Source: an uncultured Clostridia bacterium (GTDB taxonomy: Bacteria > Bacillota > Clostridia > Christensenellales > CAG-138). From it: a stretch of 64,000 nt of DNA. Below, in pieces: positions 10,586-32,117 of the stretch (the stretch's first letter is position 1; the number at the start of each line of letters is the position of its first letter). A program made the position numbers and the translations under genes. Where the stretch lies: the NCBI GenBank assembly GCA_937900325.1, contig CALCEX010000070.1, positions 15,122 to 79,121 of the forward strand, read 5' to 3'. Under the pieces are notes generated by a model that saw only the letters and a list, made by a program, of their open reading frames with translations, made no database searches and had not been told where the DNA came from.

Positions 10586-10597
10586 GGTTATTATTAT

Positions 10598-13494: not shown

Positions 13495-15939
13495 TTATTC
13501 TTCTGAATCGGGGTCAACGTGCGGAACTATTGCGACGGACGCCACCCGGTCCTCGGTGCGCATAAGGCGCACGCCCTGGGTATTGCGGGATATTTCGGAT
13601 ATCTGCTCCACCGGCAGCCTTATTATGGTGCCCTCGGAGCTTATTATCATTACGTCCTCCGCCATGCCGGAGGCCCCTACCGCCTTCATGCAGACGAGAT
13701 CGCCGGTCTTTTCGGTTATGGCCATTGCTATTATGCCCTTGCCGCCCCTGCTCTGGGTGCGGTAATCCTCCTCCGGCGTGCGCTTGCCCATTCCGTTTTC
13801 GGATATGGAGAGTATGGAGGCGCCGGGGCGTACCTTCTCGGCTCCCACCACGCTGTCGTTTTCCTCGAGGGTTATGGCCTTTACGCCCGTCGCGCCCCTG
13901 CCCATGGGACGCACGTCCTCCTCGCTGAAGCGTATGCTCTTGCCCTTTCTGGTGCCGACTATTATCTCATCGCGGCCGTTTGTCATTATGGCGGCGATGA
14001 GCTCGTCCCCCTCCCTGAGGTTCTGGGCGATCATGCCGCCCTTGCGGATATTGCCGAACTCCTCAACGGGGGTCTTTTTGATCAGGCCGGCCTTGGTTAT
14101 GAGGTTCAGGTACCTGCCATCCTCCCCCAGGGGGAACAGCGTGGTCACCTTTTCTCCCTCCCTGAGGCTGAGCAGGTTCACTATGGCGGTGCCCTTTGCG
14201 GTGCGGCCCGCCTCGGGTATGCGGTAGCACTTCATCCTGAACACGCGGCCCATGTTGGTAAAGAACATTATCTCGTCATGGGTGCTGCAGCCGAACAGGT
14301 GCTCTACGAAATCCTCCTCGCGGGTGGTCTGGCCGGTTATGCCCCTGCCGCCCCGGTTCTGCGCCCTGTAGGTATCCATGCTGGTGCGCTTTACAAAGCC
14401 GAAGTGGGTGAGGGTCACCGTCATCTCCTCGGGCTGTATTATGTCGTCCAGCTCTATATCCTCGGTTATCTGGGCTATCTCGGTCCTTCTGGGGTCTGCG
14501 TATTTGCGGCGGACCTCCATTATCTCATCCCGGATTATGCCCAGCAGCTTGCTTTCATCCGCAAGCACGCTCTCATAATAGGCGATGGTCTCTATGAGGC
14601 CGTCCCTCTCCGCCTGTATCTTATCGTGCTCAAGCCCTGTGAGGCGGCCGAGGCGCATATCCAGTATCGCCTGGCTCTGCCTGTCCGTCAGGCCGAAGCG
14701 TATGTTCAGCCTTTCCTTTGCCTCCCCCTGGGTCTTTGAGGTCTTGATTATATCCACGACCTCGTCTATATTCGCCATGGCTATGAGCAGGCCCTCTAAT
14801 ATGTGCAGCCGCTCCCTGGCCTTTTCCAGGTCGTGCCTTGTGCGCCGGGTCACTACCTCCTCCTGGAATCTGAGGTAGTGGTACAGCATCTCCTTTATGT
14901 TGAGCACCTTTGGCTCGCCATCCACAAGGGCCAGCATTATCACGCCGAAGGTATCCTGAAGCTGGGTGTGCTTATAGAGCTGATTCAGGACGATATTGGC
15001 GTTCACGTCCTTTTTTATCTCTATTACCACCTTCATGCCGTTGCGGTTGCTCTCATCCCGCAACGCGGTTATGCCCTCCACCCGCTTTTCGCGCGCCAGC
15101 TCCGCTATCTTTTCCACCAAGCGCGCCTTGTTCACCTGATAAGGAAGCTCGGTGACAACTATGCGGCTCTTGCCGTTCGCCATGGGCTCTATCTCGGTCT
15201 TTGCGCGGACGAGTATCTTGCCGCGCCCCGTCCTGTATGCCTGCCTTATGCCGGCGGTGCCCATTATGGTCGCGCCGGTGGGGAAATCCGGCCCGGGCAG
15301 GTACGTCATGAGCTCCTCTACGGATATGTCCCGGTTGTCTATGAGGGCCGCGTATGCGTCTATTACCTCCCCGAGGTTATGGGGGGGTATGTTTGTGGCC
15401 ATGCCTACGGCTATGCCGTTGCTGCCGTTTACCAGCAGATTCGGGAAGCGGCTGGGCAGCACGGTGGGCTGCGTCAGCGTCTCGTCGAAGTTGGGCATGA
15501 AGTCCACGGTGCTCTTGTCTATATCCGCCAGCATCTCGAGGCTCATTTTTGAAAGCCGCGCCTCGGTATAGCGCATCGCCGCCGCGCCGTCCCCGTCCAC
15601 GCTGCCGAAGTTGCCCTGGCCCTCTACGAGAAGGTATCTGGTGTTGAAGTCCTGGGCCAGGCGCACCATCGCGTCGTATACCGAGCTGTCGCCGTGAGGA
15701 TGGTATTTGCCCAGTACGTCGCCCACTATGCGGGCGGACTTATGGAAGGGCTTATCCGGGGTGAAGCCCTGCTCCCCCATGGAGTAGAGTATGCGCCGGT
15801 GCACCGGCTTGAGGCCGTCCCGCACATCCGGCAGGGCGCGGTTTATTATTACCGCCATGGCGTAGGAAATAAAGGATTTCTTCATCTCCTGCTCTATATC
15901 CAGCGGCGTTATGCGGGGGTTGTTGGTCATGTCGTCCAT
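13495..15939 (-). CDS. gyrA: DNA gyrase subunit A
   Basis: 814 aa. [16 protein letters not shown], the active-site region AAMRYTE, and C-terminal beta-pinwheel repeats. Confidence 0.97.
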
Positions 15940-15950
15940 TTACTGCTCCT

Positions 15951-17891
15951 TTATACGTCCAGATCCACTACCAGCTTGCTGTTCTGCTCTATGAACTCCC
16001 TGCGGGGATCCACCTTATCCCCCATGAGCGTAGAGAATATCTCGTCCGCCCGTATGGCGTCCTCAAGGTGTACCCGGTACATCATGCGGTTGTCCGGGTC
16101 CATGGTGGTCTCCCATAGCTGGTCCGGGTTCATCTCGCCCAGGCCCTTGTAGCGGTTGATGAGGGGCTTGGGGTCCCGCCCTATCTCGGAAAGTATCTTT
16201 GAAAGCTGCTCGTCGTCATAGGCGTACCATATGTTCTTGCCCCGGGTGATCCTATACAGCGGGGGCTGGGCGGCGTATATGCGGCCGTGCTCTATAAGGG
16301 GGCGCATATGCCTGTAAAAGAAGGTGAGCAGCAGTATCCTTATGTGCGCGCCGTCCACGTCCGCATCCGTCATGCAGACTATCTTGTGATAGCGGAGCCT
16401 GCTCTCGTCAAACTCGGTGTCTATGCCGGTGCCGAAGGCGGTTATCATGGAGCGTATCTCGTTGTTGGCGAGCATCTTGTCAAGGCGGGTCTTTTCAACG
16501 TTGAGTATCTTTCCGCGAAGGGGCAGTATGGCCTGGAACTCCGGGTTGCGCCCCATCTTGGCGGAGCCGCCCGCGGAATCCCCCTCTACCAGGAATATCT
16601 CGCATTTTTCCGGCTCGTTGCTGTTGCAGTCCGCAAGCTTGCCGGGGAGCGCTATATTCTCGAGGCCGGTCTTTTTGCGGGTAAGGTCCCTCGCCCTCCT
16701 CGCGGCCTCCCTGGCCCTCGATGCGGTTATGCATTTGTCTATTATCAGCCTTGCGGTCTGCGGGTGCTCCTCAAAATAGAAGCCCAGGCCGTTGCCCACC
16801 ACGCCGTCCACAAGGGACTTGATATAGGAATTGCCCAGCTTGGTCTTGGTCTGCCCTTCAAACTGGGGCTCCACAAGCTTTACGCTTATTATCGCGGTAA
16901 GTCCCTCCCGGACGTCGTCGCCGGAGAGGTTCGCGTCGTTATCCTTGAGCAGCCTGTATTTCCTCGCGTAGTCGTTTATGCTGCGGGCAAGGGCGCTGCG
17001 GAAGCCCTGAAGGTGGGTGCCGCCCTCGGCGGTATTTATGTTGTTGGCGAAGGCGAATACGCTTTCGTTATAGTCGGTGTTGTACTGCATGGCCACCTCC
17101 ACGGAGGCCACCTGCTGCTTCGCGGGGTCGTCCCTTCTGCCCTCGAAATACATGACGTCCTCATGGAGCACGTCCTTGCTTTTGTTAAGGTGCTCCACAA
17201 AGGAGATTATGCCGCCCTCATAGCAGTATTTTTTGCTCTGCACCGGGTCCGTGCGCTCATCCGTGACGGTTATGGCCACGCCCTTGTTCAGGAAGGCCAG
17301 CTCCCTCATGCGCCCCCGCAGGGTATCGTAGTTGTAATCCAGCGTGTCGAATATCTTATCGCTCGCAAGGAAGGTTATGGTGGTGCCGGAGCCTTCCCCT
17401 TCGTATGTGCCTACCTGCTCTACCCCCGTCACCGGGTCGCCGTTTACATATTGCTGCCGGTATACTATGCCGTCCCGGCGCACCTCCGCGGTAAGCGAGC
17501 TGGAAAGGGCGTTTACCACGGACAAGCCAACGCCGTGCAGGCCGCCGGATACCTTATAGCCGCTGCCGCCGAACTTGCCCCCCGCGTGCAGCACGGTAAG
17601 CGCTACCTCCAGCGCGGATTTATGCATCTTCTCATGGTAGCCCACGGGTATGCCGCGGCCGTTATCCCGGACGGATACGGAATTGTCCGGGTGTATGGTG
17701 ACCTCTATATGGGTGCAGTAGCCGCCCATGGCCTCGTCTATGGCGTTATCCACCAGCTCCTTTACAAGGTGGTGCAGTCCCCGCACATCCGTGGAGCCTA
17801 TATACATACCGGGGCGGCGCTTTACCGCCTCCAGCCCCTCGAGCACCTGTATCTCGTTTGCGTTGTAGTTTGCGTGGTTGTTCTGTTCCAT
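15951..17891 (-). CDS. gyrB: DNA gyrase subunit B
   Basis: 646 aa. GHKL ATPase ([15 protein letters not shown]), Toprim ([12 protein letters not shown]) and [10 protein letters not shown]. Confidence 0.97.
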
Positions 17892-17911
17892 GGTAAATGC
17901 CCTTCTGTAAA

Positions 17912-18151
17912 TTATCTCCTGGCTATCGCCGCCGCCCCCGCAGCCGATGCGTACACCCTTATTCCATCGGGCGCCGCGGCGATAACGTATGTGTCCCCCT
18001 CGCCGCCGGATACGCAGTCCACCCGGCCGGAGCCTATGGCCGCCTCCATAAAGCGGCGGTTGTCGTATGAATACATCACCGTTTCCCGGGGCAGTATAAG
18101 GAGTATTTCCTCATCGTCCACTACCTTATCCCCGCCTATATGCAGATACAT
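17912..18151 (-). CDS. remB: DUF370 protein (RemB/YaaB-like)
   Basis: 79 aa. [11 protein letters not shown]... matches the DUF370 N-terminus. It holds the conserved position between recF and gyrB. RBS GGAGGAATA. Confidence 0.75.
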
Positions 18152-18163
18152 TATTCCTCCCCG

Positions 18164-19261
18164 TCATTCCACGGTCATCCCGCCGCCCCCGCAGCGGAAC
18201 ACCCTCATATCGCCCAGGCCCGCCCGCTTCAGCCCCTCGAGGCTCGTGCAGGTCAGAAAGCACTGGCAGTCCTTCATGCTCTCCAGCAAAAGCTGCTGGC
18301 GGCCCTCGTCCAGCTCAGACAGAACGTCGTCAAGTATCAGCACCGGGGCTTCATCCTTGAGCTCCCGTATGAAGGCAAGCTCGGAAAGCTTTAATGAGAG
18401 CGCCGCGGTGCGCTTCTGCCCCTGGGAGCCGAAGGTGCGCACGTCTATGCCGGAGAGGGCTATGCCTATATCGTCCCGGTGGGGGCCCCTCGTGGTAAAG
18501 CCCCGGCGCATATCCTCCGCCCTGCTTTTTTCGAGGGCGCTGAGCATCCCGCCGTAAATGCCCTCCGGCGATTCCGGGTCTATGTCCGGCTCATAGGCTA
18601 CCTCGAGCTTTTCCCGGCCTCCCGTTATGCTCCTGTGCAGGTCGTAGGCTATCGTGGAAAGGCCGTCCATGAAGCCGCAGCGCTCCATTATGATATCCTC
18701 GCCCAGCGCCGCAAGCTGCTCGTCCCATGCCTCCAGCATTCCGGGGGCTATCCTGTCCGGCTCCTTTAAGAGGGCGTTGCGCTGCTTAAGCGCCGAATTG
18801 TACCTTTGCAGGCTGTAATAATAGGCCGGGTGGGTCTGGGAAAGCTCCATATCCATGAAGCGCCGCCGCTCCGCCGGGCCGTCCTTTACTATTGAAAGAT
18901 CCTCCGGGGCGAACATCACCACATTCAGCAGCCCCATGAGCTCCCCGGAGCGGGAGGCCATCTGCCGGTCTATGAATATTTTCTTGCGCTCCCCGTCCCG
19001 GAGCTTTATCTCGATAAGGTGGGAGCCGGTGTTGTTGGTAAGCTCCGCCCCGACGTACCCGCCGGCGCAGCCCCGCATGATGAGCTCCGCGTCCCTCGAG
19101 GTCCTGTGGGACCGGCCGAAGGCGCAGAGAAAAACCGCCTCCACGCTGTTGGTCTTGCCCTCCGCGTTGTCCCCCACTATGGCGTTTATGCCGGGGCCGG
19201 GGCGCAGGTCGAGGGCGGCATAGCTGCGGTACTGATTCAAGCGCAAGCGGTTGATCTCCAT
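18164..19261 (-). CDS. recF: DNA replication/repair protein RecF
   Basis: ORF 18164..19285 begins with TTG, so I used ATG 19261 (MEINRLRLNQYRSY). Walker A GDNAEGKTN, signature FGSQGQKRT, Walker B LILDDVLSELD. Confidence 0.93.
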   Translation of the reverse strand: MEINRLRLNQYRSYAALDLRPGPGINAIVGDNAEGKTNSVEAVFLCAFGRSHRTSRDAELIMRGCAGGYVGAELTNNTGSHLIEIKLRDGERKKIFIDRQMASRSGELMGLLNVVMFAPEDLSIVKDGPAERRRFMDMELSQTHPAYYYSLQRYNSALKQRNALLKEPDRIAPGMLEAWDEQLAALGEDIIMERCGFMDGLSTIAYDLHRSITGGREKLEVAYEPDIDPESPEGIYGGMLSALEKSRAEDMRRGFTTRGPHRDDIGIALSGIDVRTFGSQGQKRTAALSLKLSELAFIRELKDEAPVLILDDVLSELDEGRQQLLLESMKDCQCFLTCTSLEGLKRAGLGDMRVFRCGGGGMTVE

Positions 19262-19486
19262 CTTCTCTGCCCGCCTGTAATACAAAAATTTTACCTGCTG
19301 ATTTTACCATAAAATCAGGGATTTTTCAATGGCTATTATTATAATAAGAAGAAAGCATTGCAAAAATGCATAAATATGCGTAAGATGCATATCGCGGCGC
19401 CCCACAAAAATATTTGCGCCGCCGTTGAAATATAGTATAATAAATAAAAATATAAACGGTATCATCCATTCCAGGGAGGGACGAAT

Positions 19487-20593
19487 ATGCGCTTTACAGT
19501 TGATACGGCTGAGCTCAACGCCGCCGTTGCCACGGTTTCAAAGGCGCTGGGAGTAAAATCCTCAGTTGGCATATTGGAGGGCATATATGCCGAGGCCATA
19601 GGCGATACGCTGCTGCTCAGGTGTACCGACCTTTCGCTCCAGATAGAGGCTACGCTCAACGTGAATATCCAGAAGGAGGGGGCCTGCGTGCTGCCCGGGC
19701 GGCTCTTTTCCGAGCTTGTAAGGAGGCTGCCCGCGGAGGAGACGCTGCTCAGCCTCAATAAGAGCACGCTGCTTATCGAAAGCGGCAGGGCCACCACCAC
19801 CATGCAGGTGGAAAACGCCAAGGATTACATCTCCATGCCGGAGGTCAGCCGGGAGTTCTCCGTGGCCATATCCAAGGCGACCCTGAAGAGCATGATACGC
19901 CAGTGCATATTCGCGACGGCCCAGGACGATTCCAAGCCCATTCTCCGTGGCGTGCTCATAGAGCTCGACGGCGGCCGCATGAGCATGGTAGCCCTTGACG
20001 GATACCGTCTCGCCATGCGCACCGAGACGGTCACGGTATCGGGCGAGGCGAAGAGCGCGGTCATCCCCGCCCGCGGCCTTCTGGAGATAAGCCGCATACT
20101 GGACGACAGCGACGAGACCATCAGCCTGGTATTCTCCGCCACCCATGTAATGATAGACATGGGCTATACCCGCATAATCACCCGCCTTATGGACGGCGAT
20201 TTCATACGCTACCGCCAGATACTGCCGGAGGGCTGCACCACCCATGTGCGGGTGAACCGCACAGAGCTTCTGGACAGCATTGAGCGCGTCTCCCTCATGG
20301 CCCGGGAAAGCAGGAAGAACCACATAAAGTTCTCCTTTGAGGATTCTCAGCTCACCATCACCGCCAACAGCGAGATAGGCGCCAGCAAGGAAATAGTCAA
20401 TATCGACCGCATGGGCAGCGATATAGACATTGCCTTCAACGCAAAGTATTTCAGCGACGTGCTGAAGGTGCTGGAGGACGAATACGTCTGCCTGGATATG
20501 AACACCAACATAAGCCCCTGCGTGGTAAAGCCCGAGACCGGCGACGCATACTATTACCTCATCCTCCCCGTAAGGCTGTTTTCGGGGAATTGA
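19487..20593 (+). CDS. dnaN: DNA polymerase III beta subunit (sliding clamp)
   Basis: 368 aa. MRFTVDTAELNAAV... with three-domain clamp length. RBS GGGAGGG. Confidence 0.95.
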   Translation: MRFTVDTAELNAAVATVSKALGVKSSVGILEGIYAEAIGDTLLLRCTDLSLQIEATLNVNIQKEGACVLPGRLFSELVRRLPAEETLLSLNKSTLLIESGRATTTMQVENAKDYISMPEVSREFSVAISKATLKSMIRQCIFATAQDDSKPILRGVLIELDGGRMSMVALDGYRLAMRTETVTVSGEAKSAVIPARGLLEISRILDDSDETISLVFSATHVMIDMGYTRIITRLMDGDFIRYRQILPEGCTTHVRVNRTELLDSIERVSLMARESRKNHIKFSFEDSQLTITANSEIGASKEIVNIDRMGSDIDIAFNAKYFSDVLKVLEDEYVCLDMNTNISPCVVKPETGDAYYYLILPVRLFSGN

Positions 20594-20599
20594 CGCTTT

Positions 20600-20678
20600 A
20601 TTCCTTCTTTCCTCCTTCTTTCTCTTTTCTTTTCAGGAGAAAAGAAAAGCAGAAAGAAGCAAAGAGAAAAGAAAAGCC
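20600..20678 (+). repeat. Polypyrimidine/polypurine hairpin element, copy 1 (3' of dnaN)
   Basis: The 20-mer CTTCTTTCTCTTTTCTTTTC at 20615-20634 is identical to those at 25671-25690 and 30452-30471. It is followed by AGGA and the purine arm GAAAAGAAAAGCAGAAAGAAG, then ...GAAAAGAAAAGCC. Confidence 0.9.
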
Positions 20679-20694
20679 AGAGTTAAATAAATAT

Positions 20695-20730
20695 AAAAAT
20701 AAAGGAACGGTCTCAGCCGTTCCTTTTGCT
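20695..20730. terminator. Bidirectional intrinsic terminator between dnaN and the noc-like gene
   Basis: GGAACGG-tctcag-CCGTTCC, with an A-run upstream and a T-run downstream. Confidence 0.75.
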
Positions 20731-20739
20731 TTGTTTGCT

Positions 20740-21573
20740 TTATTCGCCCGTTATCTTTATGTGTATATCCACCCCGTTGTGCAGGTCCTCCTGCTCCACC
20801 TCCACGTTCATGCCGGATTCCCTGAGCACCCCGATAGCCGAATTGACGGTGTTCATGAAAAGCCGGTAATCCCGCACCTGTCGTATTATGGCGGGGCGGG
20901 GGGCCGCGCCGGGGCGCTTTTCGTCGTACATTTTATCGAGGGTCTTTTCCACCAGCCTTTCGGTATCCTTTACCGAGAGGTTCTTTTCCGCCGTGCGCTT
21001 TATTACGGCAAGCTGCGCCTGCTCGTCCCTGAGCTTTAGCACCGCCCGGGCGTGGCGCTCCGAAAGGCCGTTTTCCCGCAGCGCCGACACCACCTCAGGG
21101 GACAGCCGCAGAAGCCGCAGCTTATTGGCTATGGAGGACTGGCTCTTGCCCAGCCGCTTTGCAAGCTCCTCCTGGGTGAGGTTGTAGTTGTTGAGCAGGG
21201 CGTAGTAGCACTGCGCCTCCTCCATATAGTTGAGCTCCTCCCGCTGAAGGTTCTCTATGAGGGCCACCATGGCGGAGGCTTCCTCCTGCATGGAGTCCTC
21301 TACTATGCAGGTGACCTTCTCCATGCCGAGGGACTTGCAGGCGCGCAGGCGGCGCTCCCCCGCCACCAGCTCATAGCCGGAGCCGCTGCTTCTTACCACC
21401 AATGGCTGTATCAGCCCCACCTGGCTTATGCTCTGGGCAAGCTCTGCTATGGTCTCGTCGTCAAATGTCGCGCGGGGCTGGTTTGGGTTCGGGACTATTT
21501 TTTCAACGGGTATTTCCAGCAGCCTGCGCTGGCTTTCCGTAGTCCGGGGACGAAGTGTAAATTCAAAGGACAT
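20740..21573 (-). CDS. noc: ParB/Noc family protein (nucleoid-occlusion-like ParB paralog)
   Basis: ORF 20740..21654. Start set at ATG 21573 (RBS AGGAGA), which avoids overlap with rsmG. ParB box LVAGERRLRA and an HTH. Sits downstream of rsmG, as noc does in Bacillus. Confidence 0.8.
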   Translation of the reverse strand: MSFEFTLRPRTTESQRRLLEIPVEKIVPNPNQPRATFDDETIAELAQSISQVGLIQPLVVRSSGSGYELVAGERRLRACKSLGMEKVTCIVEDSMQEEASAMVALIENLQREELNYMEEAQCYYALLNNYNLTQEELAKRLGKSQSSIANKLRLLRLSPEVVSALRENGLSERHARAVLKLRDEQAQLAVIKRTAEKNLSVKDTERLVEKTLDKMYDEKRPGAAPRPAIIRQVRDYRLFMNTVNSAIGVLRESGMNVEVEQEDLHNGVDIHIKITGE

Positions 21574-21634
21574 TATGCGTTCTCCTGATAAATTTGTTTT
21601 TTCTAAAACGGCCGTCAGCCATTTCCGCGAAACC

Positions 21635-22324
21635 CTAAAGGGGCTTCTTGTCAACGGTTCCCGCCTTGCGGGGGTATGCCTTTGGGGTGGGCTTATGCTT
21701 TGTGAGTATGACCACGCAGCGCTCCCCCCACTCCGCCGGGTATGACCTTATCTCCCCGGCGCAGCATAAAAGCTCCAGCGCCCTTTCGCCCTCCCTCAGC
21801 TCCGCGGCGGCCTGAGGGCCCTTATACATGAGGGACCTGCCCCCTACCCTGAGGAAGGGCACGGTGTATTCCGCAAGGGGGGACACCCGGGCTACCGCGC
21901 GGGACACGGCGATGTCGAATTTTTCCCGAAGGGCGGGGCTCCTGCCTGCGTCCTCCGCACGGGCGTGTATGCATTCCGCGTTTATATCGAGCTCCTTGCA
22001 TACCTCCCTTAAAAAGCCTACGCGCTTATTGAGCGAATCGAGCAGCGTCACCCTCGCGTCCGGCCTTGCTATGGCTATGGGCAGCCCGGGGAAGCCCGCG
22101 CCCGTGCCGACGTCTATGATTTTCGCCCCCTTTGGAATAAGCTCGAGGGGCAGCAGGCTGTCCGCAAAGTGCTTTTTCAGTACCTCCTCCTCGCCGGTTA
22201 TGGCGGTAAGGTTCATGCGGCTGTTCCAGTCCGTTAGCATATCGTAATAGCGGCAGAGCTTTTGGGCCTGCTCCTCCGTCAGCCCCGCCGCGGGTATGGT
22301 ATTTATTACGGTCTGTATATCCAT
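21635..22324 (-). CDS. rsmG: 16S rRNA (guanine527-N7)-methyltransferase
   Basis: 229 aa. GidB family (DVGTGAGFPGLPIAI). Directly downstream of mnmG. Confidence 0.92.
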   Translation of the reverse strand: MDIQTVINTIPAAGLTEEQAQKLCRYYDMLTDWNSRMNLTAITGEEEVLKKHFADSLLPLELIPKGAKIIDVGTGAGFPGLPIAIARPDARVTLLDSLNKRVGFLREVCKELDINAECIHARAEDAGRSPALREKFDIAVSRAVARVSPLAEYTVPFLRVGGRSLMYKGPQAAAELREGERALELLCCAGEIRSYPAEWGERCVVILTKHKPTPKAYPRKAGTVDKKPL

Positions 22325-24196
22325 CTATTTTCCCTCCAGCAGCCTGAGCTGTATCAGCAGCACCCCTATATCCGCCGGGGACACGCCGCTTATGCGCCCG
22401 GCCTGGCCTATGCTTCTCGGGCGTATGGCGGAAAGCTTCTGCCTTGCCTCAAGGCGGAGCCCCTCCATATGGGCGTAATCCACCCCCTCCGGTATGAGCA
22501 TATCCTCCTGCTGCTTGAGCCTTTCCACCTGCTGCTTCTGTTTTTCTATGTAGCCCTCATAATGGGCGGATATTTCCACCTGCTCCCGCGCCTCGTCCGA
22601 AATTTCCGGAAGGCCGGATACCCGCATGAGGTCGGTATAGCTTATGCCCTCCCTGCGCAGCACGTCCATGAGCCTTGCGCCGCTTTTGAGCCCGCCGCCG
22701 CCCTTTTCTGAGAGCAGCTCCATAAGCCCCTCCTCCGGGCGCGCCGTCTTGTTCAACGCGGCCATGGCCTTTTCCATATCGCTTTGCTTTTCCATCAGCC
22801 TTGCGTAGCGCTTTTCGGATATGAGCCCCGTCCTTCTCGCCTTTTCCGTAAGCCGCAGGTCGGCGTTGTCCTGCCTGAGCAGCAGCCGGTATTCGGCGCG
22901 GGAGGTCATCATCCTGTAAGGCTCGTTTGTGCCCTTTGTCGCGAGGTCGTCCACCAGTACCCCAATATATGCGTCTCCGCGGGAAAGTATGAAGGGCTCC
23001 TCGCCCTTTAAGTAAAGGGCGCAGTTTATGCCGGCGTAAATGCCCTGGGCGGCGGCCTCCTCATAGCCGGAGCTGCCGTTTATCTGCCCCGCGAAGTACA
23101 GCCCGGGTATATCCTTGCTGCCGAGGGCGGTATTCAGCGTGTTGGGGTCTATGCAGTCGTACTCTATGGCGTAGCCCGCCCGCATTATCTCCGAGCGCTC
23201 GAGCCCCGGTATGGTGCGCAGCATTTCCACCTGAACGTCATAGGGCAGACTGGTGCTCATTCCCTGAACGTACATCTCGTCCGTGGAAAGCCCCTCCGGC
23301 TCGATGAAAAGCTGGTGCCTGTCCTTATCCGCGAACCGCTTTATCTTATCCTCTATGCTGGGGCAGTACCTTGTGCCGGTGCCGGTAACAAGGCCGGAAT
23401 ACATGCTGCTCCTGTGGATATTGTTCAGTATTATCTCGTGGGTGCGATGGTTGGTATAGGTAAGGTAGCAGGGCTGCTGCGGCCTTTCCCCCTTATCGCT
23501 CAGGAATGAAAAGCAGGGAGAGGGCACGTCGCCGTACTGGGGCTCCATCCTTTCAAGATCAAGGCTGCGCCTGTTTACCCTTGGGGGGGTGCCGGTCTTG
23601 AAGCGGCGGAGCCTGAAGCCAATATCCTCAAGGCTCGCCGAGAGCGCGTTTGAGCGGAGCATGCCCGAAGGCCCCGACTCCGTAACGTAGTCGCCTATGA
23701 GCACGCGGCTTTTAAGGTAAACCCCCGTGGCCACAACTATGCCCCGGCAGCGGTACTCTATTCCGCCGCCCGCGATTATGCCCGCCACGCGGCCATTCTG
23801 AAGCAGTATCCTCTCGCATTCGCCCATCCTGAGATCCAGCAGCGGCTCCCGCTCCAGCGCGCGCTTCATCCTCTCGTGATACCGGCGCTTATCCATCTGC
23901 GCCCGGAGGGAATGAACGGCGGGGCCCTTGCCGGTGTTGAGCATACGTATCTGAATGAAGGTATCGTCCGCCGCCGCGCCCATTTCACCCCCCAGCGCAT
24001 CCAGCTCCCGCACAAGGTGTCCCTTTGAGGTGCCGCCTATGGCCGGGTTGCAGGCCATGAGGGCCACGCTGTCAAGGTTCATGGTAAGGCAGAGGGTCTT
24101 AAGCCCCATGCGGGCGCAGGCGAGCGCCGCCTCGCAGCCCGCGTGACCCGCGCCCAGCACCGCCACGTCGTATATTCCGCCCAGATATGTGTTCAT
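22325..24196 (-). CDS. mnmG: tRNA uridine 5-carboxymethylaminomethyl modification enzyme MnmG (GidA)
   Basis: 623 aa. FAD-binding N-terminus DVAVLGAGHAGCEAA, with GidA length and a C-terminal helical domain. Confidence 0.96.
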   Translation of the reverse strand: MNTYLGGIYDVAVLGAGHAGCEAALACARMGLKTLCLTMNLDSVALMACNPAIGGTSKGHLVRELDALGGEMGAAADDTFIQIRMLNTGKGPAVHSLRAQMDKRRYHERMKRALEREPLLDLRMGECERILLQNGRVAGIIAGGGIEYRCRGIVVATGVYLKSRVLIGDYVTESGPSGMLRSNALSASLEDIGFRLRRFKTGTPPRVNRRSLDLERMEPQYGDVPSPCFSFLSDKGERPQQPCYLTYTNHRTHEIILNNIHRSSMYSGLVTGTGTRYCPSIEDKIKRFADKDRHQLFIEPEGLSTDEMYVQGMSTSLPYDVQVEMLRTIPGLERSEIMRAGYAIEYDCIDPNTLNTALGSKDIPGLYFAGQINGSSGYEEAAAQGIYAGINCALYLKGEEPFILSRGDAYIGVLVDDLATKGTNEPYRMMTSRAEYRLLLRQDNADLRLTEKARRTGLISEKRYARLMEKQSDMEKAMAALNKTARPEEGLMELLSEKGGGGLKSGARLMDVLRREGISYTDLMRVSGLPEISDEAREQVEISAHYEGYIEKQKQQVERLKQQEDMLIPEGVDYAHMEGLRLEARQKLSAIRPRSIGQAGRISGVSPADIGVLLIQLRLLEGK

Positions 24197-24335
24197 ACGT
24201 TAAATTACCTCTTATTTTCTTCCATGCTACATTATAGCAGAAAACCCGCCCTGTGGGAAATATTTTTATTTCCCGATGCGGTATAGTATAATATATCCGT
24301 TATTTCAGGCAAGCGCATCAGGAGAAAAACACGAT

Positions 24336-25652
24336 ATGACCGACACCATTTACGCCCTTTCCACCCCCGTCGGCGGGGCGATAGCCGTTATACGCATAAG
24401 CGGCCCGGGTACCCTTCCGGCGCTTCGGGCGGTATTCAACGGCAGGATAGAGCACCGCTACGTTTCCCACGGCAGCATAACCGGGGCGGACGGCGCGCCG
24501 ATAGACGACGCCATGGCGGTATACTTCCGCGCCCCCAACAGCTACACCGGGGAGGACATGGCGGAGCTTTACATCCACGGCGGCTACGCCGTATCCAAGG
24601 GGGTGCTGTCCCGGCTTTCCGAGCTGCCCCTTCGCCCCGCCGGGCCGGGGGAATTCACGCGGCGGGCGTTTATGAACGGCAAGCTGGATCTTGCCCGGTC
24701 CGAGGCGGTAATGGACCTTATCAACGCCTCCTCCGCCCGCTCCGCCTCCTCGGCGCTGGAGCAGCTTCAGGGCGCGCTTTCCCGGCGCATAGAGTCGGTC
24801 GAGCGGGAGCTTATAGACCTGCTCTCCGGCATAGACGCGGCGATAGATTATCCAGAGGAGCTGGAGGAGGACGTATTCTCCGCCCTGCCCTCCGGAATAC
24901 GCTCGGCAAAGGCCGAGGTGGATTCCCTCATATCCGGCGGCATGGCCTCAAGGATGATACGGGAGGGGGCGCGCATAGCCATATTAGGAAGGCCCAACGC
25001 GGGCAAAAGCTCGCTTTTCAACGCCATGCTGGGGGAGGACCGCGCCATAGTCACCCCGGAGGAAGGCACCACCCGCGACATATTGGAGGGGACGCTGCTG
25101 ATAAACGGCATAACCGCCCGCCTTTTCGATACGGCGGGCCTGCGGGAGGCGGGCTCCGCCGCGGAAAGCATAGGCATATCCCGCGCGCGGGAGATAGTGG
25201 ATAAGGCGGATCTTCTGCTCATTGCCATGGACGGCGGCGTGGAGGCCACAAATGAGGAGCGGCGGCTGCTCTCCTCCCCCGGGAGAAAGCTTGCGGTGAT
25301 ATGCAAAAGCGACGTTTCGGAGGGCGACAGCGCCTTCGCCCTCGCGGGGGAATACGGCGTGGAGGCCATAGGCGTGAGCGCGGTCACGGGCGACGGTGTG
25401 GCGGCGCTCATAGACCGCGTTGCGGAGCTTATCGCGCCGGAATGCGAAAGCGCCCTCGTCACAAACAGCCGCCATATAGCTGCGCTTCGGGAATGCTCCG
25501 CTGCGCTCTCCTCCGCCCTTCAGACACAGGAGGCGGACTGCGCGGCGACAGACCTGCGCGCAGCCCTTATCGCGCTGGGCGAGATCACCGGCAGAAGCGT
25601 GGACGCGGACGTTGTGGACAGGATATTCTCCCGCTTCTGCGTGGGGAAGTGA
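24336..25652 (+). CDS. mnmE: tRNA modification GTPase MnmE (TrmE)
   Basis: ORF 24276..25652. ATG 24336 is preceded by AGGAGA. MTDTIYALSTP..., G-domain GRPNAGKSSLFN / DTAG, and the C-terminal FCVGK motif. Confidence 0.95.
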   Translation: MTDTIYALSTPVGGAIAVIRISGPGTLPALRAVFNGRIEHRYVSHGSITGADGAPIDDAMAVYFRAPNSYTGEDMAELYIHGGYAVSKGVLSRLSELPLRPAGPGEFTRRAFMNGKLDLARSEAVMDLINASSARSASSALEQLQGALSRRIESVERELIDLLSGIDAAIDYPEELEEDVFSALPSGIRSAKAEVDSLISGGMASRMIREGARIAILGRPNAGKSSLFNAMLGEDRAIVTPEEGTTRDILEGTLLINGITARLFDTAGLREAGSAAESIGISRAREIVDKADLLLIAMDGGVEATNEERRLLSSPGRKLAVICKSDVSEGDSAFALAGEYGVEAIGVSAVTGDGVAALIDRVAELIAPECESALVTNSRHIAALRECSAALSSALQTQEADCAATDLRAALIALGEITGRSVDADVVDRIFSRFCVGK

Positions 25653-25670
25653 CGGTAATTTTATTTACCT

Positions 25671-25790
25671 CTTCTTTCTCTTTTCTTTTCAGGAGAAAAG
25701 AGTAAAGAAGCAAAGAGAAAAGAAAAGCCCAGGGGAAACAATAAAAGAAAATAGAAATCGCTGAGAAATCCAACGGGAAACGATAATAAG
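25671..25790 (+). repeat. Polypyrimidine/polypurine hairpin element, copy 2 (3' of mnmE), long form
   Basis: Identical 20-mer at 25671-25690. Purine arms run to 25729, followed by the module CAACGGGAAACGATAATAAG, which is shared with copy 3. Confidence 0.9.
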
Positions 25791-25803
25791 AACCGGGTAC
25801 AGT

Positions 25804-25835
25804 AAAAGGACGGCGACTTGCCGTCCTTTTGTTTT
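25804..25835. terminator. Bidirectional intrinsic terminator between mnmE and jag
   Basis: AAAA-GGACGGC-gactt-GCCGTCC-TTTTGTTTT. Confidence 0.8.
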
Positions 25836-25845
25836 ATATTATCAA

Positions 25846-26838
25846 TTATTCTTCGCTGCTTTTCGGGTAGACGACCACCCGGCGGTTGGGCTCCTCGCCC
25901 TCGCTGCGCGTCGCCACATATGGGTTGTTCTGGAGCGTGGCGTGCAGCACCCTGCGCTCGTAGGGATTCATGGGCTCCAGCGTGCGGGCCCGTCCCGTGG
26001 CCTTTACCTGATTGGCTATCTTCCTGGCAAGGCGGGCAAGGGTCTCCTCCCTCTTCTCCCGGTATCCCTCGGTGTCTATGGATATGCGGGTGTAGCCGTC
26101 CTGCTTGCGGTTGCGGTTGACCGCAAGGCTCGTCAGGTACTGCATCGCGTCCAGGGTCTCTCCCCTGTGGCCTATGAGCATTCCCGTGGTGGACTTGTCT
26201 ATGTAAAGGCGCACGCCATCCTCGCCTACATTGGCCAGCACCGTTCCCTCAACGCCCATGCGCTCCAGCATTCCCTTGACGAATTCCGCGGCAGGATTGC
26301 CCTCCGCCGCCTCCTCGGTGAAGCCCTCCGGCGGCTCCTTGGCCTGATAGCGGGGGCGGCTGTCGCGGTCTCTGCGGCCGCGGCCGCGCCTGTCCCTGCG
26401 TTCCCTTTGCTGCCTCTCGGCGGGATATTCTATCGTCTCCGTCTCGATCGTCTCGACAGTCTCGACAGTCCCGGCGGCTTCCTCCCGGTTTTCCTGCGGG
26501 GCGTGCTTTCCGTCGCCCGCTTCCTCCCGCTCGTCCCTGGGGCCGCGCTCTCTGCGGCCGCGCCTGTCGCGGTCGTTCCTTTGCTCCCTGCGGTCCCGGC
26601 GCTCCCGCCGCTCCCGCTCCTGATATTCAGGCCTGAGATATTCGGGAAGCAATATATCCTCCGGCTCCCTCTCTATGAGCTTTACTATGGCGGGCTTTGC
26701 GCCTATGCCCAGTATGCCCTTGCTTTCATGCTGTATTATGTCTATCTCCACCTCGTCTATGGAGATCCCCAGCTCCTTGAGGCCGTTGAATATCGCCTCG
26801 TCTATGGAGCGGCCCGTGGCCTGGATAGTTCTGAGCAT
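25846..26838 (-). CDS. jag: Jag/KhpB RNA-binding protein (Jag_N + KH + R3H) with a long R/E/D-rich insertion
   Basis: 330 aa. The N-terminus is Jag_N, and the C-terminus has an R3H-type ending (EPMNPYERRVLH). Downstream of yidC with a TAATG overlap. Confidence 0.9.
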   Translation of the reverse strand: MLRTIQATGRSIDEAIFNGLKELGISIDEVEIDIIQHESKGILGIGAKPAIVKLIEREPEDILLPEYLRPEYQERERRERRDRREQRNDRDRRGRRERGPRDEREEAGDGKHAPQENREEAAGTVETVETIETETIEYPAERQQRERRDRRGRGRRDRDSRPRYQAKEPPEGFTEEAAEGNPAAEFVKGMLERMGVEGTVLANVGEDGVRLYIDKSTTGMLIGHRGETLDAMQYLTSLAVNRNRKQDGYTRISIDTEGYREKREETLARLARKIANQVKATGRARTLEPMNPYERRVLHATLQNNPYVATRSEGEEPNRRVVVYPKSSEE

Positions 26839-27791
26839 TACTTTTTACCCCCTTCCTGGACAGCGGCGGCCCGGGGGAATTTTTTGTTCAAGACCAGGTT
26901 TACCAGCACCATGAATACGCTGGTGAGTATCCAGTATATGGCGAAGGCCGCGTTATAGCTGAGGCAGAACCACAGCGACATGAGCGGGAACAGCCACATC
27001 ATCATCTTGCTGGTAGAGGCGGCGGGGTTGTTTGGATCGGGCGCGGGCTGGCCCTTCTGCATTATCCAGTTGGCAAGGAACTGGGTGCCGCCGGCTATAA
27101 TGGGAAGTATGAACCATCCGTTGTTATGGCCCGCATATACCTCAAGAAGCGGCGCTACCGCGGCGTTGTAGGCGTCGATCGCGGCCTGTGTATTGAGGAA
27201 GCGGAAGCTTCCGCCCTCGTTTACCGCTATCCCAAGCTGTACCAGCTTTTCCCATACCCCGGGGTTGTTCTGCAGATAAAGCAGCCTGTCCAGATCGTTT
27301 GTGCTCGCAAGGAACTTGCTGCCCTCCTGTATTACGGGAGAAAAGCCGTTGTCGGGCTGCCATATGTTGTTTACCCAGAGGAATTTGAAGCTCCTGAGCA
27401 GCTCCTCGGCGTTATCCGAGACCAGCAGCTTTATGGTTTCCTCATAGCCCCAGAAGCGGAAGGCGGCTATGAAGCAGAAAAACAGCGGCATGGTTATGAG
27501 CAGCGGCAGGCAGCTTCCCCACATGGAAACGCCCTTTTCCTTCATGAGCTTCCGGCTCATCAGCTGGGCCTTCTGGGGGTCGTTGGCGTATTTTTTCTGT
27601 ATTTTCGCAAGCTCCGGCTGGATGCCGTTCATCTTGGCCTGTGATTTACGGGTGGCTATATCGGAAAATATGGTAACGCCCCTCAATACCACCGTGCATA
27701 TCAGTATGGTAAGGAATACGCTGTTCACGTTGGAGTATACCCATCTCATAGCCTCAAGGAACCATGTAGTCAAAAAGAAATCGCCCTGCAT
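26838..27791 (-). CDS. yidC: Membrane protein insertase YidC
   Basis: ORF 26838..27926. Start set at ATG 27791 (RBS GAGGAAAA). YidC/Oxa1 core (KMNGIQPELAKIQKKY...GCLPLLITMP). Confidence 0.9.
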   Translation of the reverse strand: MQGDFFLTTWFLEAMRWVYSNVNSVFLTILICTVVLRGVTIFSDIATRKSQAKMNGIQPELAKIQKKYANDPQKAQLMSRKLMKEKGVSMWGSCLPLLITMPLFFCFIAAFRFWGYEETIKLLVSDNAEELLRSFKFLWVNNIWQPDNGFSPVIQEGSKFLASTNDLDRLLYLQNNPGVWEKLVQLGIAVNEGGSFRFLNTQAAIDAYNAAVAPLLEVYAGHNNGWFILPIIAGGTQFLANWIMQKGQPAPDPNNPAASTSKMMMWLFPLMSLWFCLSYNAAFAIYWILTSVFMVLVNLVLNKKFPRAAAVQEGGKK

Positions 27792-27834
27792 CGATTTTCC
27801 TCGCTTTCGTCGGTTGATAAAAAAAAGTAAGTAG

Positions 27835-28086
27835 TTACCTGCCCCTGTATTCCATCCTTTTTGGCGGCACCGGATCCACCCCTCCCTTTGAAAAGGGGTT
27901 GCACCTGAGCACCCGCCAGACGGCAAGGCGCAGGCCCCTCCATGGGCCGTGCGTCCGTATCGCCTCGAGGGCGTAGGCGGAGCAGCTTGGCCGGTAGCGG
28001 CAGCAGGGAGAAAACCTGGGGGATATATACCTCTGGTAGCCCGTTATGAGGCTCTCCATGATCTGCTGCGCCCTTTCCCGGATCAT
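27835..28086 (-). CDS. yidD: Membrane protein insertion efficiency factor YidD
   Basis: 83 aa. YQRYISPRFSPCCRYRPSCSAYALEAI is the YidD signature. Confidence 0.92.
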   Translation of the reverse strand: MIRERAQQIMESLITGYQRYISPRFSPCCRYRPSCSAYALEAIRTHGPWRGLRLAVWRVLRCNPFSKGGVDPVPPKRMEYRGR

Positions 28087-28457: not shown

Positions 28458-28500
28458 CCTTATGCGTCCTTAGCAGTGGATCCGAAGGATCGTGTCGTTG

Positions 28501-28533
28501 AGAAAAAACTCACGGCAAGCTCAGCTTGCCGTG
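28501..28533 (-). terminator. Hairpin/terminator between rpmH and rnpA
   Basis: On the - strand: CACGGCAAGC-uga-GCUUGCCGUG followed by AGUUUUUUCU. Confidence 0.7.
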
Positions 28534-28554
28534 ACACTTGTCAAAGCGTATTTA

Positions 28555-28945: not shown

Positions 28946-28974
28946 TTGATAAACCACGCGGGATTTGATATATT
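28946..28974 (+). promoter_or_regulatory. Candidate dnaA promoter
   Basis: TTGATA, a 17-nt spacer, then TATATT. The 5' UTR would be about 120 nt. Confidence 0.4.
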
Positions 28975-29101
28975 TATAGGCGCGGAGGTTATGCGGCATC
29001 CTGCGCAGCCCGCTGCGGGCTGTATATATTTCTTTACTGAACTGTATATATTTAAATTTTTAAAGGCCGGCATACGGCTTTTGCTGTATTTTGGGGGAAT
29101 T

Positions 29102-30430
29102 ATGGACGACTTTTTAGATTGCAGGCTTATTTGGGAAAAAGCGCAGCCCGAAATAAAGGAAGGCATGACCGAGATGAGCTACGGCCTGTGGATATCCGCT
29201 CTGGAGCCCGTCTGCATACTCAGCGATATGCTGATACTGCAATCCGCCAACGAGGTGACCCTGGATACCCTCAGGAGCCTTTATTCAGACCAGATAGCCA
29301 ACGCTATCTCGCACGCCTCCGGCGCGAGCCTCCGGCCGATGTTCATCTGCGGCGACGAGCGCCCCAAATATGAAAAGCTCATGGCGGAGAAAAAGCGCCG
29401 CAGCGAGTCCCTCCTGGATCCCCGCTTCACCTTCGATACCTTCGTAATAGGCGGCAGCAACAACATAGCCTACGCCGCGGCGAAGGCTGTTGCGGCGCAG
29501 CCGGCAAAGGCCTTCAACCCTCTCTACATTTACGGCGACGTGGGCCTGGGCAAGACCCACCTCATGCACGCCATAGGCAATAAGATAAAGGAGGACAACC
29601 CCTCCGCCCGCATAACCTACGTTACCAGCGAGACCTTCACAAACGAGCTGATACAGTCCATTCAGGACAACACCAACGCCCAGTTCCGCAGCAGGTACCG
29701 CAATGTGGACGTGCTTATGATAGACGACGTACAGTTCATCGCCGGAAAGAACACCACCCAGGAGGAATTCTTCAACACCTTCAACACCCTCCACACCAGC
29801 GGCAGACAGATAGTCATATCCTCGGATAAGCCCCCCAAGGAGATACCCGCCCTTGAGGAGCGGCTGCGCAGCCGCTTTGAAGGCGGGCTGATAACCGACA
29901 TACAGTCGCCGGATTACGAGACCCGCATGGCCATACTGCAAAAAAAGGCGGATCAGGAGAACATAGTCATCGATCCGCGGGTGCTTTCCCTCATAGCCAC
30001 AAAGGCCAACGCCAACATACGCCAGCTTGAGGGCGCCTTCACCCGCGTGGTGGCCTTTTCAAAGCTCCTTGGCACCCCCATTACCCTTTCCATGGCGGAT
30101 TCCGCCCTCAAGGATATAATCGAGGACGTGCAGGAGCGGCGGGTGACGGTTCCCATGGTGCAGCAGGTGGTGGCGGATTTCTACAACGTATCCGTGGACG
30201 CCATGACCTCCTCCCGCCGCACGGCGGACGTTACCTACCCCCGTCAGGTGGCCATGTACCTTTCCCGGGAGATGACCGACCTCTCCCTCAAGGCCATAGG
30301 CGAGCAGTTCGGCGGCAGGAACTATTCCACCATAATCTCCGCCTGCAACAAGATAGAGGACGATATGCTCTTCGACCCCGAGCTTTCAAAGGTGTTCAAG
30401 GACCTCAAAAAGCGGATAAAGGGGAACTGA
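29102..30430 (+). CDS. dnaA: Chromosomal replication initiator protein DnaA
   Basis: ORF 28946..30430. ATG 29102 is preceded by GGGGGA. AAA+ Walker A GDVGLGKTHL, box VII, and a domain IV HTH (GGRNYSTIISACNKI). Confidence 0.96.
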   Translation: MDDFLDCRLIWEKAQPEIKEGMTEMSYGLWISALEPVCILSDMLILQSANEVTLDTLRSLYSDQIANAISHASGASLRPMFICGDERPKYEKLMAEKKRRSESLLDPRFTFDTFVIGGSNNIAYAAAKAVAAQPAKAFNPLYIYGDVGLGKTHLMHAIGNKIKEDNPSARITYVTSETFTNELIQSIQDNTNAQFRSRYRNVDVLMIDDVQFIAGKNTTQEEFFNTFNTLHTSGRQIVISSDKPPKEIPALEERLRSRFEGGLITDIQSPDYETRMAILQKKADQENIVIDPRVLSLIATKANANIRQLEGAFTRVVAFSKLLGTPITLSMADSALKDIIEDVQERRVTVPMVQQVVADFYNVSVDAMTSSRRTADVTYPRQVAMYLSREMTDLSLKAIGEQFGGRNYSTIISACNKIEDDMLFDPELSKVFKDLKKRIKGN

Positions 30431-30451: not shown

Positions 30452-30530
30452 CTTCTTTCTCTTTTCTTTTCGGGAAAAGAAAAGCCAACGGGAAATATAT
30501 AAATAAAAAATTAGAAAACGATAAAAAAAG
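30452..30530 (+). repeat. Polypyrimidine/polypurine hairpin element, copy 3 (3' of dnaA), short form
   Basis: Identical 20-mer at 30452-30471, then GGG-AAAAGAAAAGCC. It lacks about 28-30 nt present in copies 1 and 2. It shares AACGGGAAA...AACGATAAAAAAG with copy 2. Confidence 0.9.
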
Positions 30531-30560
30531 AGCGGTTTTTATGCCGCTCTTTTTGTTTTG
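30524..30560. terminator. Bidirectional intrinsic terminator between dnaA and livF
   Basis: AAAAAA-GAGCGG-tttttatg-CCGCTC-TTTTTGTTTT. Confidence 0.8.
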
Positions 30561-32116: not shown

Positions 32117-32117
32117 A

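Follow-up and report, generated by a model that had tools for sequence, protein, structure and literature searches.

A lineage-specific 64-bp repeat with a predicted intrastrand-triplex layout at convergent gene ends of gut Clostridia

The 3′ ends of dnaN, mnmE and dnaA in an uncultured Clostridia bacterium each carry a copy of a polypyrimidine/polypurine element, which we describe here from a stretch of 64,000 nucleotides (64 kb) of contig CALCEX010000070.1, referred to as the window throughout. These copies belong to a lineage-specific, non-coding interspersed repeat of 64 bp found in a narrow clade of Acutalibacteraceae-like gut Clostridia, which is built of one pyrimidine block (Y) followed by two purine blocks (R1 and R2) and is placed with a marked polarity between stop codons and terminators. 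The sequence family seems to be previously undescribed, while its structural class and its ecology, which resembles that of repetitive extragenic palindromes (REPs), are already known. On balance, we favour an explanation in which the element is a recombinogenic, probably mobile small repeat that resides in promoter-free 3′-end spacers, is transcribed there as a hairpin of the 3′ untranslated region (3′ UTR) and, as DNA, contributes to local instability.

Results

Three copies of a repeat family

An earlier note on this DNA had reported an identical 20-mer, CTTCTTTCTCTTTTCTTTTC, at three places on the + strand, and a search that allowed up to three mismatches indeed returned exactly three matches in the 64-kb window, at 20615, 25671 and 30452, all on the + strand, compared with 0.01 expected by chance from shuffled sequences. 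The same three sites are the window's three longest homopyrimidine tracts. The gaps between stop codon and copy given in the note (18–21 nt) were reproduced, at 21 nt for dnaN, 18 nt for mnmE and 21 nt for dnaA, with all three genes assigned by NCBIfam equivalogs. A rough gene map based on the G+C content of third codon positions (GC3) likewise agrees with the note: in the first 45 kb it shows no convincing + strand genes besides dnaN, mnmE and dnaA, whose 3′ ends form the three convergent junctions of that part of the window. What had been presented as three like copies are, however, one full element and two shortened ones: the 20-mer is present in all three, but copy 2 lacks 5 nt of R1, and copy 3 is a deletion form from which most of R1 and R2 is gone. 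A covariance model built from 25 relatives' copies and run with filters off found no further copies in the window beyond these three.

Homologues were collected by scanning one genome per species with CTTCTTTCTCTTTTCTTTTC and by scanning metagenomes with a hairpin pattern. This yielded at least 54 distinct copies at about 12–16 gene ends in metagenome-assembled genomes (MAGs) and metagenomes of related Clostridia, bearing out the proposal of a small interspersed repeat of the REP type or of the type of miniature inverted-repeat transposable elements (MITEs), and supplying the conservation in relatives that the note had asked for. Among the 54 collected copies, 41 are 64 nt and 8 are 63 nt long. 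Among the matches listed, true members come from no more than three GTDB species representatives. SFEL01 ('Clostridiales bacterium W0P31.004') has at least 10 of them, spread over several contigs; CAKTYU01, which is an uncultured Clostridia MAG of a Hadza gut sample, has the element at its orthologous dnaN, mnmE and dnaA sites plus one other copy; and CAVIAA01 ('Acutalibacteraceae bacterium') has a short form of the repeat.

Alignment of the collected copies gave the consensus CTTCTTTCTCTTTTCTTTTC-NNNN-GAAAAGAAAAG(N)AGAAAGAAG-CAAAGAGAAAAGAAAAGCC, in which the Y arm CTTCTTTCTCTTTTCTTTTC and the R2 block CAAAGAGAAAAGAAAAGCC are invariant, the 4-nt loop is variable (AGGA, GGGA, GGGC, ATGA, GTTG and others) and R1 consists of GAAAAGAAAAG and AGAAAGAAG on either side of a hypervariable centre of 1–4 nt. 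The element's edges are sharp, since flanks cannot be aligned between sites. Rfam 15 gave no match in the window at gathering score, and relaxing the threshold returned only generic hairpin (miRNA-precursor) matches at the locus, far under their gathering scores. No description of this sequence family was found in the literature, nor any of a polypurine/polypyrimidine repeat in Clostridia. The earlier note's view that the element belongs to no named family therefore appears to hold for the exact sequence family but not for the structural class, which is that of the BoxC/TMECO class II motifs (PMC4666352).

We give next to no probability to the possibility that the copies are low-complexity sequence that arose by chance, an artefact of assembly or a short extension of the upstream coding regions. 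The sequence is of low complexity, and one frame is open through the element (LLSLFFSGEKKSRKKQREKKS); against this stand the chance expectation given above and the number of collected copies with their sharp boundaries. The locus is moreover present, with unchanged gene order and all three copies, in at least 10 independent assemblies from differing samples and assemblers, and the copies are therefore not an assembly artefact, a possibility the note had itself raised; several short contigs do terminate within the repeat, as is expected of a multi-copy sequence. A coding role is rejected, in line with the note, because offsets from the stop codon (7, 8, 13, 14, 15, 17, 18, 20, 21, 26 and 28 nt) fall in every one of the three frames and a start codon is lacking.

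Most matches to CTTCTTTCTCTTTTCTTTTC in the one-genome-per-species scan were unrelated to the element. Those in Flavobacterium lie in a conserved coding region, and those in Sporosarcina and Tetzosporium belong to a different repeat, an unrelated multi-copy element of Planococcaceae/Caryophanaceae-type Bacillales that has the same 20-mer beside a conserved end, CTTCTTTCTCTTTTCTTTTCAAAGAAAAAACCTCCCAAATTTCATTTGTGGGAGGAGTATCTCATGAAT. It was seen in the loci L021, L046, L051, L061, L065, L074, L106, L111, L117 and L123 (Tetzosporium, Chryseomicrobium and Sporosarcina), resembles the end of an insertion sequence (IS) or a similar repeat, and is a place where contigs often break. A phage origin of the Clostridia element was also considered and discarded, as only 1 of 11 matches on viral contigs is a true copy, located on an IMG/VR contig, and the others are unrelated.

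A three-block architecture with a triplex-type layout

On the + strand the element reads 5′-Y(20)-loop(4)-R1(20–21)-R2(16+)-3′, where R1 is the reverse complement of Y and R2 is the mirror of R1. The order Y(20)-loop(4)-R1(20–21)-R2(16) is kept in 49 of the 52 copies in the alignment; the remaining three are deletion forms. Twenty Watson-Crick pairs are present in 43 of the 52 copies (38 of these with a single 1-nt bulge), and 96.6% of stem cells are paired across the alignment. All 16 mirror positions match in 45/52 copies (permutation p = 5e-4, a test in which 11 of the 16 positions come from the directly repeated self-mirror 11-mer GAAAAGAAAAG), upholding the mirror symmetry, and with it the triplex potential, to which the note had pointed. 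In copy 1 the order is Y arm, AGGA, GAAAAGAAAAGCAGAAAGAAG and CAAAGAGAAAAGAAAAGCC, and the predicted RNA fold is a 20-bp hairpin with one bulged C in R1 (about -25 kcal/mol), much as the note had drawn it, followed by a separate terminator hairpin.

The block order, the antiparallel Watson-Crick complementarity and a mirror third domain that allows A*A-T and G*G-C triads are those that define class II intrastrand triplexes (PMC4666352). Judged by its sequence, the + strand has the layout of a class II (purine-motif) intrastrand triplex and the complementary strand that of a class IV (pyrimidine-motif) one. Loop 1 measures 4 nt, loop 2 measures 1–5 nt and the stems measure 16–20 nt, which places the stems beyond the limits of the ITxF search (stems of 6–15 nt, loops of 1–6 nt), limits that belong to the search and are not required by the structure. 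RNA does not form purine-motif triplexes but can form pyrimidine-type ones (PMC4666352), and the sense mRNA could therefore form only the Y:R1 hairpin.

Covariation in the stem was not significant among the collected copies, the family being too uniform to give statistical support either way. The only double-sided stem change is C-G to U-A, at the dnaA site of SFEL01; in the loci L216 and L209, a change in the Y arm matches the copy's own R1 variant and is apparently compensating. Compensating changes of this kind can also arise by template switching in quasi-palindromes during DNA replication. With 30% G+C and purines next to it, the Y:R1 hairpin is unlike an intrinsic terminator, which has a G+C-rich hairpin and a U tract; separate terminators lie 15–80 nt downstream of the element. 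The one past copy 1 scores on both strands, as expected from the note's description of a separate bidirectional terminator.

Placement and polarity at gene ends

The usual order at an occupied site is gene stop, 7–28 nt, Y-R1-R2, an A-rich spacer, a G+C-rich terminator and the neighbouring gene, which places the element in the 3′ UTR, as the note had suggested, between stop codon and terminator. The genes upstream of it are functionally unrelated and include dnaN, mnmE, dnaA, jag, the genes for V-ATPase subunit D, SelB, a sigH-like sigma factor and a LysM protein, and a few others.

We then compared junction types in a census of the window and the loci of the two best-sampled relatives, with neighbour calls based on GC3 and checked on ten translated neighbours. 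The element occupies 10/14 convergent, 2/35 tandem (gap of at least 40 nt) and 0/18 divergent junctions (Fisher p = 2e-7); these occupancies are overestimated because the loci were chosen for containing the element, although the comparison between junction types stays valid. The association with convergent junctions, which the note had read as holding for every such junction, is real as a strong tendency but is not absolute, given that 4 of the 14 convergent junctions are empty and a few copies lie at tandem ones.

At convergent sites the Y arm points to the nearest gene and R2 to the terminator, in about 10/10 cases (p = 0.002), and overall the sense orientation is found at about 13/16 unique sites (p = 0.02). 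The reverse-orientation exceptions are all at tandem junctions: one upstream of cysS, one between fbp and a glycerate-kinase gene, and one at the site seen in L126, L210 and L251. A fourth exception in placement is a copy 217 nt past a thioredoxin gene. Orientation thus tracks the adjacent gene, not the chromosome strand or the replichore, and the note's statement that copies are always on the + strand does not extend beyond the window, some copies being reversed. In SFEL01, for example, the convergent genes jag and mnmE each have their own copy, in opposite orientations. A polarity set by the replication strand, as in IS200/REP-like insertion into single-stranded DNA, was tried as an explanation and found no support, since a single replichore has the jag copy opposite to the mnmE and dnaN copies.

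Paired opposite copies 180–300 nt apart were seen inside one convergent junction at L013:4996-5303 (SFEL01, jag/mnmE) and at L132:465-872 (dnaA and its neighbour). Such pairs form a large inverted repeat, as described for paired TMECO motifs of E. coli.

Turnover and recombination at the sites

Comparison of orthologous sites between related lineages showed that the element is 88–100% identical, that the last 300 nt of the coding region are 83–99% identical and that codon third positions are 64–96% identical. The short spacer and the 80 nt downstream are, in most pairs, about 45–55% identical, that is, unalignable; flanks hence change much faster than codon third positions. In the loci L173, L207 and L231, the left flank of one site is joined to the right flank of another, which indicates recombination between copies.

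The 3′ end of jag has its own, separate copy in SFEL01, L132 and L143 and none in the window, CAKTYU01 or L142, with the terminator conserved in all of them. The element is therefore a unit of insertion or deletion, separate from the terminator. The alternative that the terminator is part of the repeat was rejected on the same ground, and terminator stems are mostly site-specific. Shortened forms vary between relatives as well: the orthologous dnaA copy in the relative CAKTYU01 retains more of R1 than copy 3 of the window, while the mnmE site of L143 has the same type of deletion as copy 3, located between direct repeats GAAAAGAAAAGC. Within the element, the purine block of the mnmE copy has a 15-nt tandem duplication, GAAGCAAAGAGAAAA, that distinguishes L001:16184-16270 from window 25671-25729 and shows slippage, and several R1-centre variants occur at one and the same site.

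A MITE of about 277 bp is inserted at a fixed position in R1, after GAGAAAAGA, in many different copies. Its terminal inverted repeats are CACCATCAGTTGACAA...TTGTCAACTGATGGTG, its ends being also given as CACCATCAGTTGACAAGAGCGCACAAG...CTTGTGTGCCTTTGTCAACTGATGGTG, and no autonomous parent IS was found for it. This MITE was seen at L133:5559-5860 and 10591-10890, and in L191, L194, L195, L227, L238, L142 and L233; in L142 and L233 its right end abuts unrelated DNA, suggesting a rearrangement mediated by the MITE or by the repeat.

The element itself is not a MITE in the sense of having terminal inverted repeats and target-site duplications. Its two ends, Y on the left and R2 on the right, mirror each other instead of forming inverted repeats, and no target-site duplication was found flanking copies on inspection of the alignment or in the comparison of filled and empty jag sites. 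BLAST searches with joined flanks for clean empty sites among close strains gave only the jag site and partial deletion forms, and no transposase adjoining the copies was seen in the 8–14 kb loci, whose open reading frames (ORFs) were not searched systematically.

A second, abundant repeat family, of about 190 nt, was encountered as 35 distinct copies in the relatives' loci and none in the window (for example L227:3834-4030, L032:4540-4740 and L044:3216-3420), often 50–120 nt downstream of the Y/R element. It is highly structured, reading GTCTGTCGAAAAACCC-GGGTTGATAAGGGGCCGCAGCCCCTTA...GCGGGTTTTGCCGCCCGGGAGCG...AAAAAGTGGC-loop-GCCACTTTTT with a terminator-like hairpin at its end, and has no match in Rfam.

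Discussion

The closest analogues of the element are the BoxC/TMECO/PIT repeats of E. coli and other Proteobacteria (Holder et al. 2015, PMC4666352), with which it shares the order, on one strand, of pyrimidine stem, loop, purine stem, loop and mirror purine stem. Both are multi-copy and intergenic with an extraordinarily conserved consensus; in both, stems are better conserved than loops, a single mismatch or bulge is frequent, flanks are hypervariable and rearranged between close strains, inverted pairs occur (here at jag/mnmE in SFEL01 and again at dnaA in L132), copy number is specific to the lineage and no associated transposase is known. However, the TMECO consensus, CCCTCNCCC-N3-6-GGGNGAGGG-N3-GGGNGAGGG, has no sequence similarity to the element, whose triads are A/T-rich (T-A*A) instead of G/C-rich (C-G*G), whose stems measure 16–20 nt instead of 9 nt, and whose hosts are Clostridia instead of Proteobacteria or Cyanobacteria. 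TMECO motifs also have no orientation or position bias and lie more often upstream of ORFs, whereas the element is 3′-proximal, polar and enriched at convergent junctions; and the TMECO triplex has been demonstrated in vitro, whereas the element is recognised as a triplex motif from its sequence.

With REPs and bacterial interspersed mosaic elements (BIMEs) (PMC3733652, PMC1525189), the element has in common that it is a short, non-coding, species- or genus-specific hairpin repeat, that it is extragenic and probably transcribed, near ORF 3′ ends at convergent or unidirectional junctions, and that it is a recombination hot spot and a fixed-point target of insertion sequences with no target-site duplication of its own. 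REPs lie no more than 20 bp from ORF 3′ ends, at convergent or unidirectional junctions, and are believed to work as RNA elements (PMC3733652); they are broken by IS elements at one exact point and are recombination hot spots, and convergent spacers are both permissive for insertion and prone to accumulate supercoiling (PMC1525189). Unlike REPs, which have a terminal, unpaired GTAG or CGTC tag, the element's consensus ends in CTTC... and ...AGCC; its stem is 20 bp of pure pyrimidine:purine, against 5–13 bp and G+C-rich in REPs, and it measures 64 nt with a third block, R2, against 20–40 nt. The cited REP survey has no GTAG or CGTC families in Firmicutes, and no REP-type RAYT gene was identified near element copies, with the same limit on the ORF search of their loci as stated above for transposases.

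Hairpin MITEs such as the Correia elements of Neisseria resemble the element in being small, non-autonomous-looking and multi-copy, with insertion/deletion polymorphism and a co-transcribed long stem-loop, but the element has an inverted repeat that is internal and adjacent, ends on the right in a mirror block, showed no target-site duplication and has no known cognate transposase. It also shares with (GAA)n.(TTC)n tracts and H-DNA mirror repeats a GAA-like homopurine mirror repeat of about 40 nt, a potential R.R:Y triplex and the prospect of orientation-dependent polymerase effects. In contrast to (GAA)n.(TTC)n, it is a fixed 64-nt unit and not a tandem microsatellite, and in contrast to H-DNA it has a complementary pyrimidine arm on the same strand, so that the fold would be intrastrand.

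In the explanation that we favour, and hold to be probable on balance, the element would spread as non-autonomous mobile DNA and/or by gene conversion, presumably without consequence for the host, and would persist at convergent 3′ ends because these contain no promoters or operators. It would be co-transcribed into the 3′ UTR of the upstream gene, where only the 20-bp Y:R1 hairpin could form, and a propensity for hairpin or triplex structures in single-stranded DNA, were these adopted in vivo, would contribute to local rearrangements and to the hypervariable centre of R1. Effects on the host, such as protection or processing of mRNA 3′ ends, would arise incidentally and not from a dedicated role at junctions. 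Several points weigh against this explanation. Neither a transposase nor target-site duplications nor terminal inverted repeats that would account for its spread turned up in the copies and loci inspected; the fixed polarity, with the Y arm to the gene and R2 to the terminator, is not explained by permissive sites alone; and the convergent enrichment is stronger than that described for REPs, which are common at unidirectional junctions too. A near-invariant element amid scrambled flanks could equally reflect purifying selection for a function. In addition, the census loci were selected for presence of the element, and the copy numbers and taxonomic range from both scans are lower bounds. Because of the fixed polarity and an enrichment at convergent junctions beyond that of REPs, two rivals, one at the level of RNA and one at the level of the junction, remain to be weighed.

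The element could be a functional 3′-UTR RNA element whose 20-bp Y:R1 stem-loop tunes expression of the upstream gene, by shielding it from 3′-to-5′ exonucleases, by serving as an RNase III site or by interfering with terminating ribosomes, with R2 supplying the asymmetry as a single-stranded purine tail. We regard this as unlikely, even though sense-oriented copies are placed 7–28 nt past stop codons and ahead of terminators, the hairpin is stable at about -25 kcal/mol, and one double-sided change (C-G to U-A) accompanies the two apparently compensating Y-arm changes in L216 and L209. REPs, a precedent for repeats thought to work as RNA, have hairpins that stabilise upstream mRNA, and ribosomes can stall where a REP is about 15 nt or less from a stop codon. 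The antisense hairpin, however, folds equally well (-27 kcal/mol), and the hairpin alone therefore leaves the polarity unexplained; R2 is conserved like the stem, yet a hairpin does not need it. The lack of significant covariation, the functionally unrelated upstream genes and the very narrow taxonomic range among the matches listed speak against it too, as does the fact that copies are lost, truncated (as in copy 3 of the window) or interrupted by the MITE without visible compensation and are reversed at three sites. A DNA-level or transcription-coupled junction module that keeps convergent transcription out of the neighbouring gene is, in our estimate, rather improbable. In the sense direction, RNA polymerase would be slowed before it reaches the shared bidirectional terminator, by a triplex or an R-loop that involves the purine-rich non-template strand (Y-R1-R2) or by gyrase bound at the site, and in the opposite direction the C/U-rich antisense RNA would be a barrier that loads Rho or forms a triplex. 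The strong enrichment at convergent junctions, a polarity fixed relative to the adjacent gene and terminator, and a 16-triad mirror architecture that is perfect in most copies all argue for such a module. GAA/TTC tracts are known to impede transcription in an orientation-dependent manner, and the supercoiling of convergent spacers (PMC1525189) would fit as well. Under physiological conditions DNA does form class II purine-motif intrastrand triplexes, which can arrest polymerases, and RNA can adopt triplexes of the pyrimidine type, yet the closest analogue, BoxC/PIT, was found to have no promoter, terminator or RNA-polymerase effect in vivo (PMC4666352). Moreover, the element is missing from 4/14 sampled convergent junctions and has copies at tandem ones, the form without R2 persists at the dnaA site (copy 3 of the window), and A*A-T triads are weak. 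We would call it a long shot that the element is a domesticated polar insulator of convergent units, including dnaA, dnaN and mnmE by the replication origin, that was spread by a mobile-element-like process; such an insulator would act as a triplex or R-loop brake on RNA polymerase, or through an antisense RNA that recruits Rho or folds into a triple helix.

The element combines the three blocks of BoxC/TMECO with much longer, A/T-rich stems and a strict position and polarity, a combination that makes the in vivo role of intrastrand-triplex motifs directly testable. To our knowledge, the BoxC/TMECO intrastrand-triplex repeats have been known for decades without an assigned role or positional bias. 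The repeat also interrupts metagenome assemblies around the replication origin of these gut Clostridia, where it appears to drive flank turnover and rearrangements, and a MITE lands in it at a fixed position. Should it be selfish DNA and nothing more, the known small bacterial repeats would gain a neat but ordinary member.

Features of the window and its origin region

The coordinates of the copies, their neighbouring genes and the associated hairpins are collected in Table 1.

Table 1 Element copies, adjoining genes and terminator-like hairpins in the window.
Feature	Position	Strand	Remark
Copy 1, full 64-nt element	20615..20678	+	Covariance-model score 97 bits
Copy 1, Y arm	20615..20634		
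Copy 1, loop	20635..20638		AGGA
Copy 1, R1	20639..20659		
Copy 1, R2	20660..20678		CAAAGAGAAAAGAAAAGCC
Copy 2, 59-nt element	25671..25729	+	5 nt of R1 deleted; 18 nt past mnmE stop; covariance-model score 83 bits
Copy 3, 35-nt deletion form	30452..30486	+	Y arm + GGG + AAAAGAAAAGCC; 21 nt past dnaA stop
dnaN, upstream of copy 1	19487..20593	+	NCBIfam equivalog TIGR00663
mnmE, upstream of copy 2	24276..25652	+	NCBIfam equivalog NF003661
dnaA, upstream of copy 3	28946..30430	+	NCBIfam equivalog TIGR00362
noc, convergent neighbour of dnaN	20740..21654	-	TIGR04285
jag/eloR, convergent neighbour of mnmE	25846..26838	-	
livF-like ABC ATPase gene, convergent neighbour of dnaA	30565..31287	-	
Bidirectional intrinsic-terminator-like hairpin of dnaN and noc	20701..20726	.	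AAAGGAACGG-loop-CCGTTCCTTT; scores on both strands
Terminator-like hairpin between mnmE and jag	25801..25833	.	
Terminator-like hairpin between dnaA and livF-like gene	30525..30554	.	

The origin-region genes (window 13495-30430) are in the canonical Firmicute order, with dnaN about 8 kb from dnaA, beyond the rpmH-jag-mnmG-noc block. Both dnaN and mnmE point against their neighbours (recF in one case, mnmG and jag in the other), as though each had been inverted singly, and the same arrangement is found in SFEL01 and CAKTYU01. Inversion of the single genes through flanking inverted copies of the element was considered and rejected, since the covariance model finds no remnant of the element at their 5′ sides.

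No canonical cluster of DnaA boxes was found near dnaA (28458-28945) or near the copies. Allowing up to one mismatch, TTATCCACA has 15 scattered matches in the window against 8 expected, with the sole perfect box at 47526, and the position and sequence of oriC are not obvious in this organism. A link of the element to oriC or to DnaA boxes was dropped accordingly, there being no TTATCCACA-like cluster near the copies. To the right of dnaA, about 15 kb (window 30565-45862; a liv-type ABC transporter, agcS, murG and others) is entirely on the - strand, and if the origin is the GC-skew minimum near 30–32 kb, this block of about 15 kb would be head-on to replication. From 38 to 50 kb the GC skew stays level, suggesting an inversion in the recent past.

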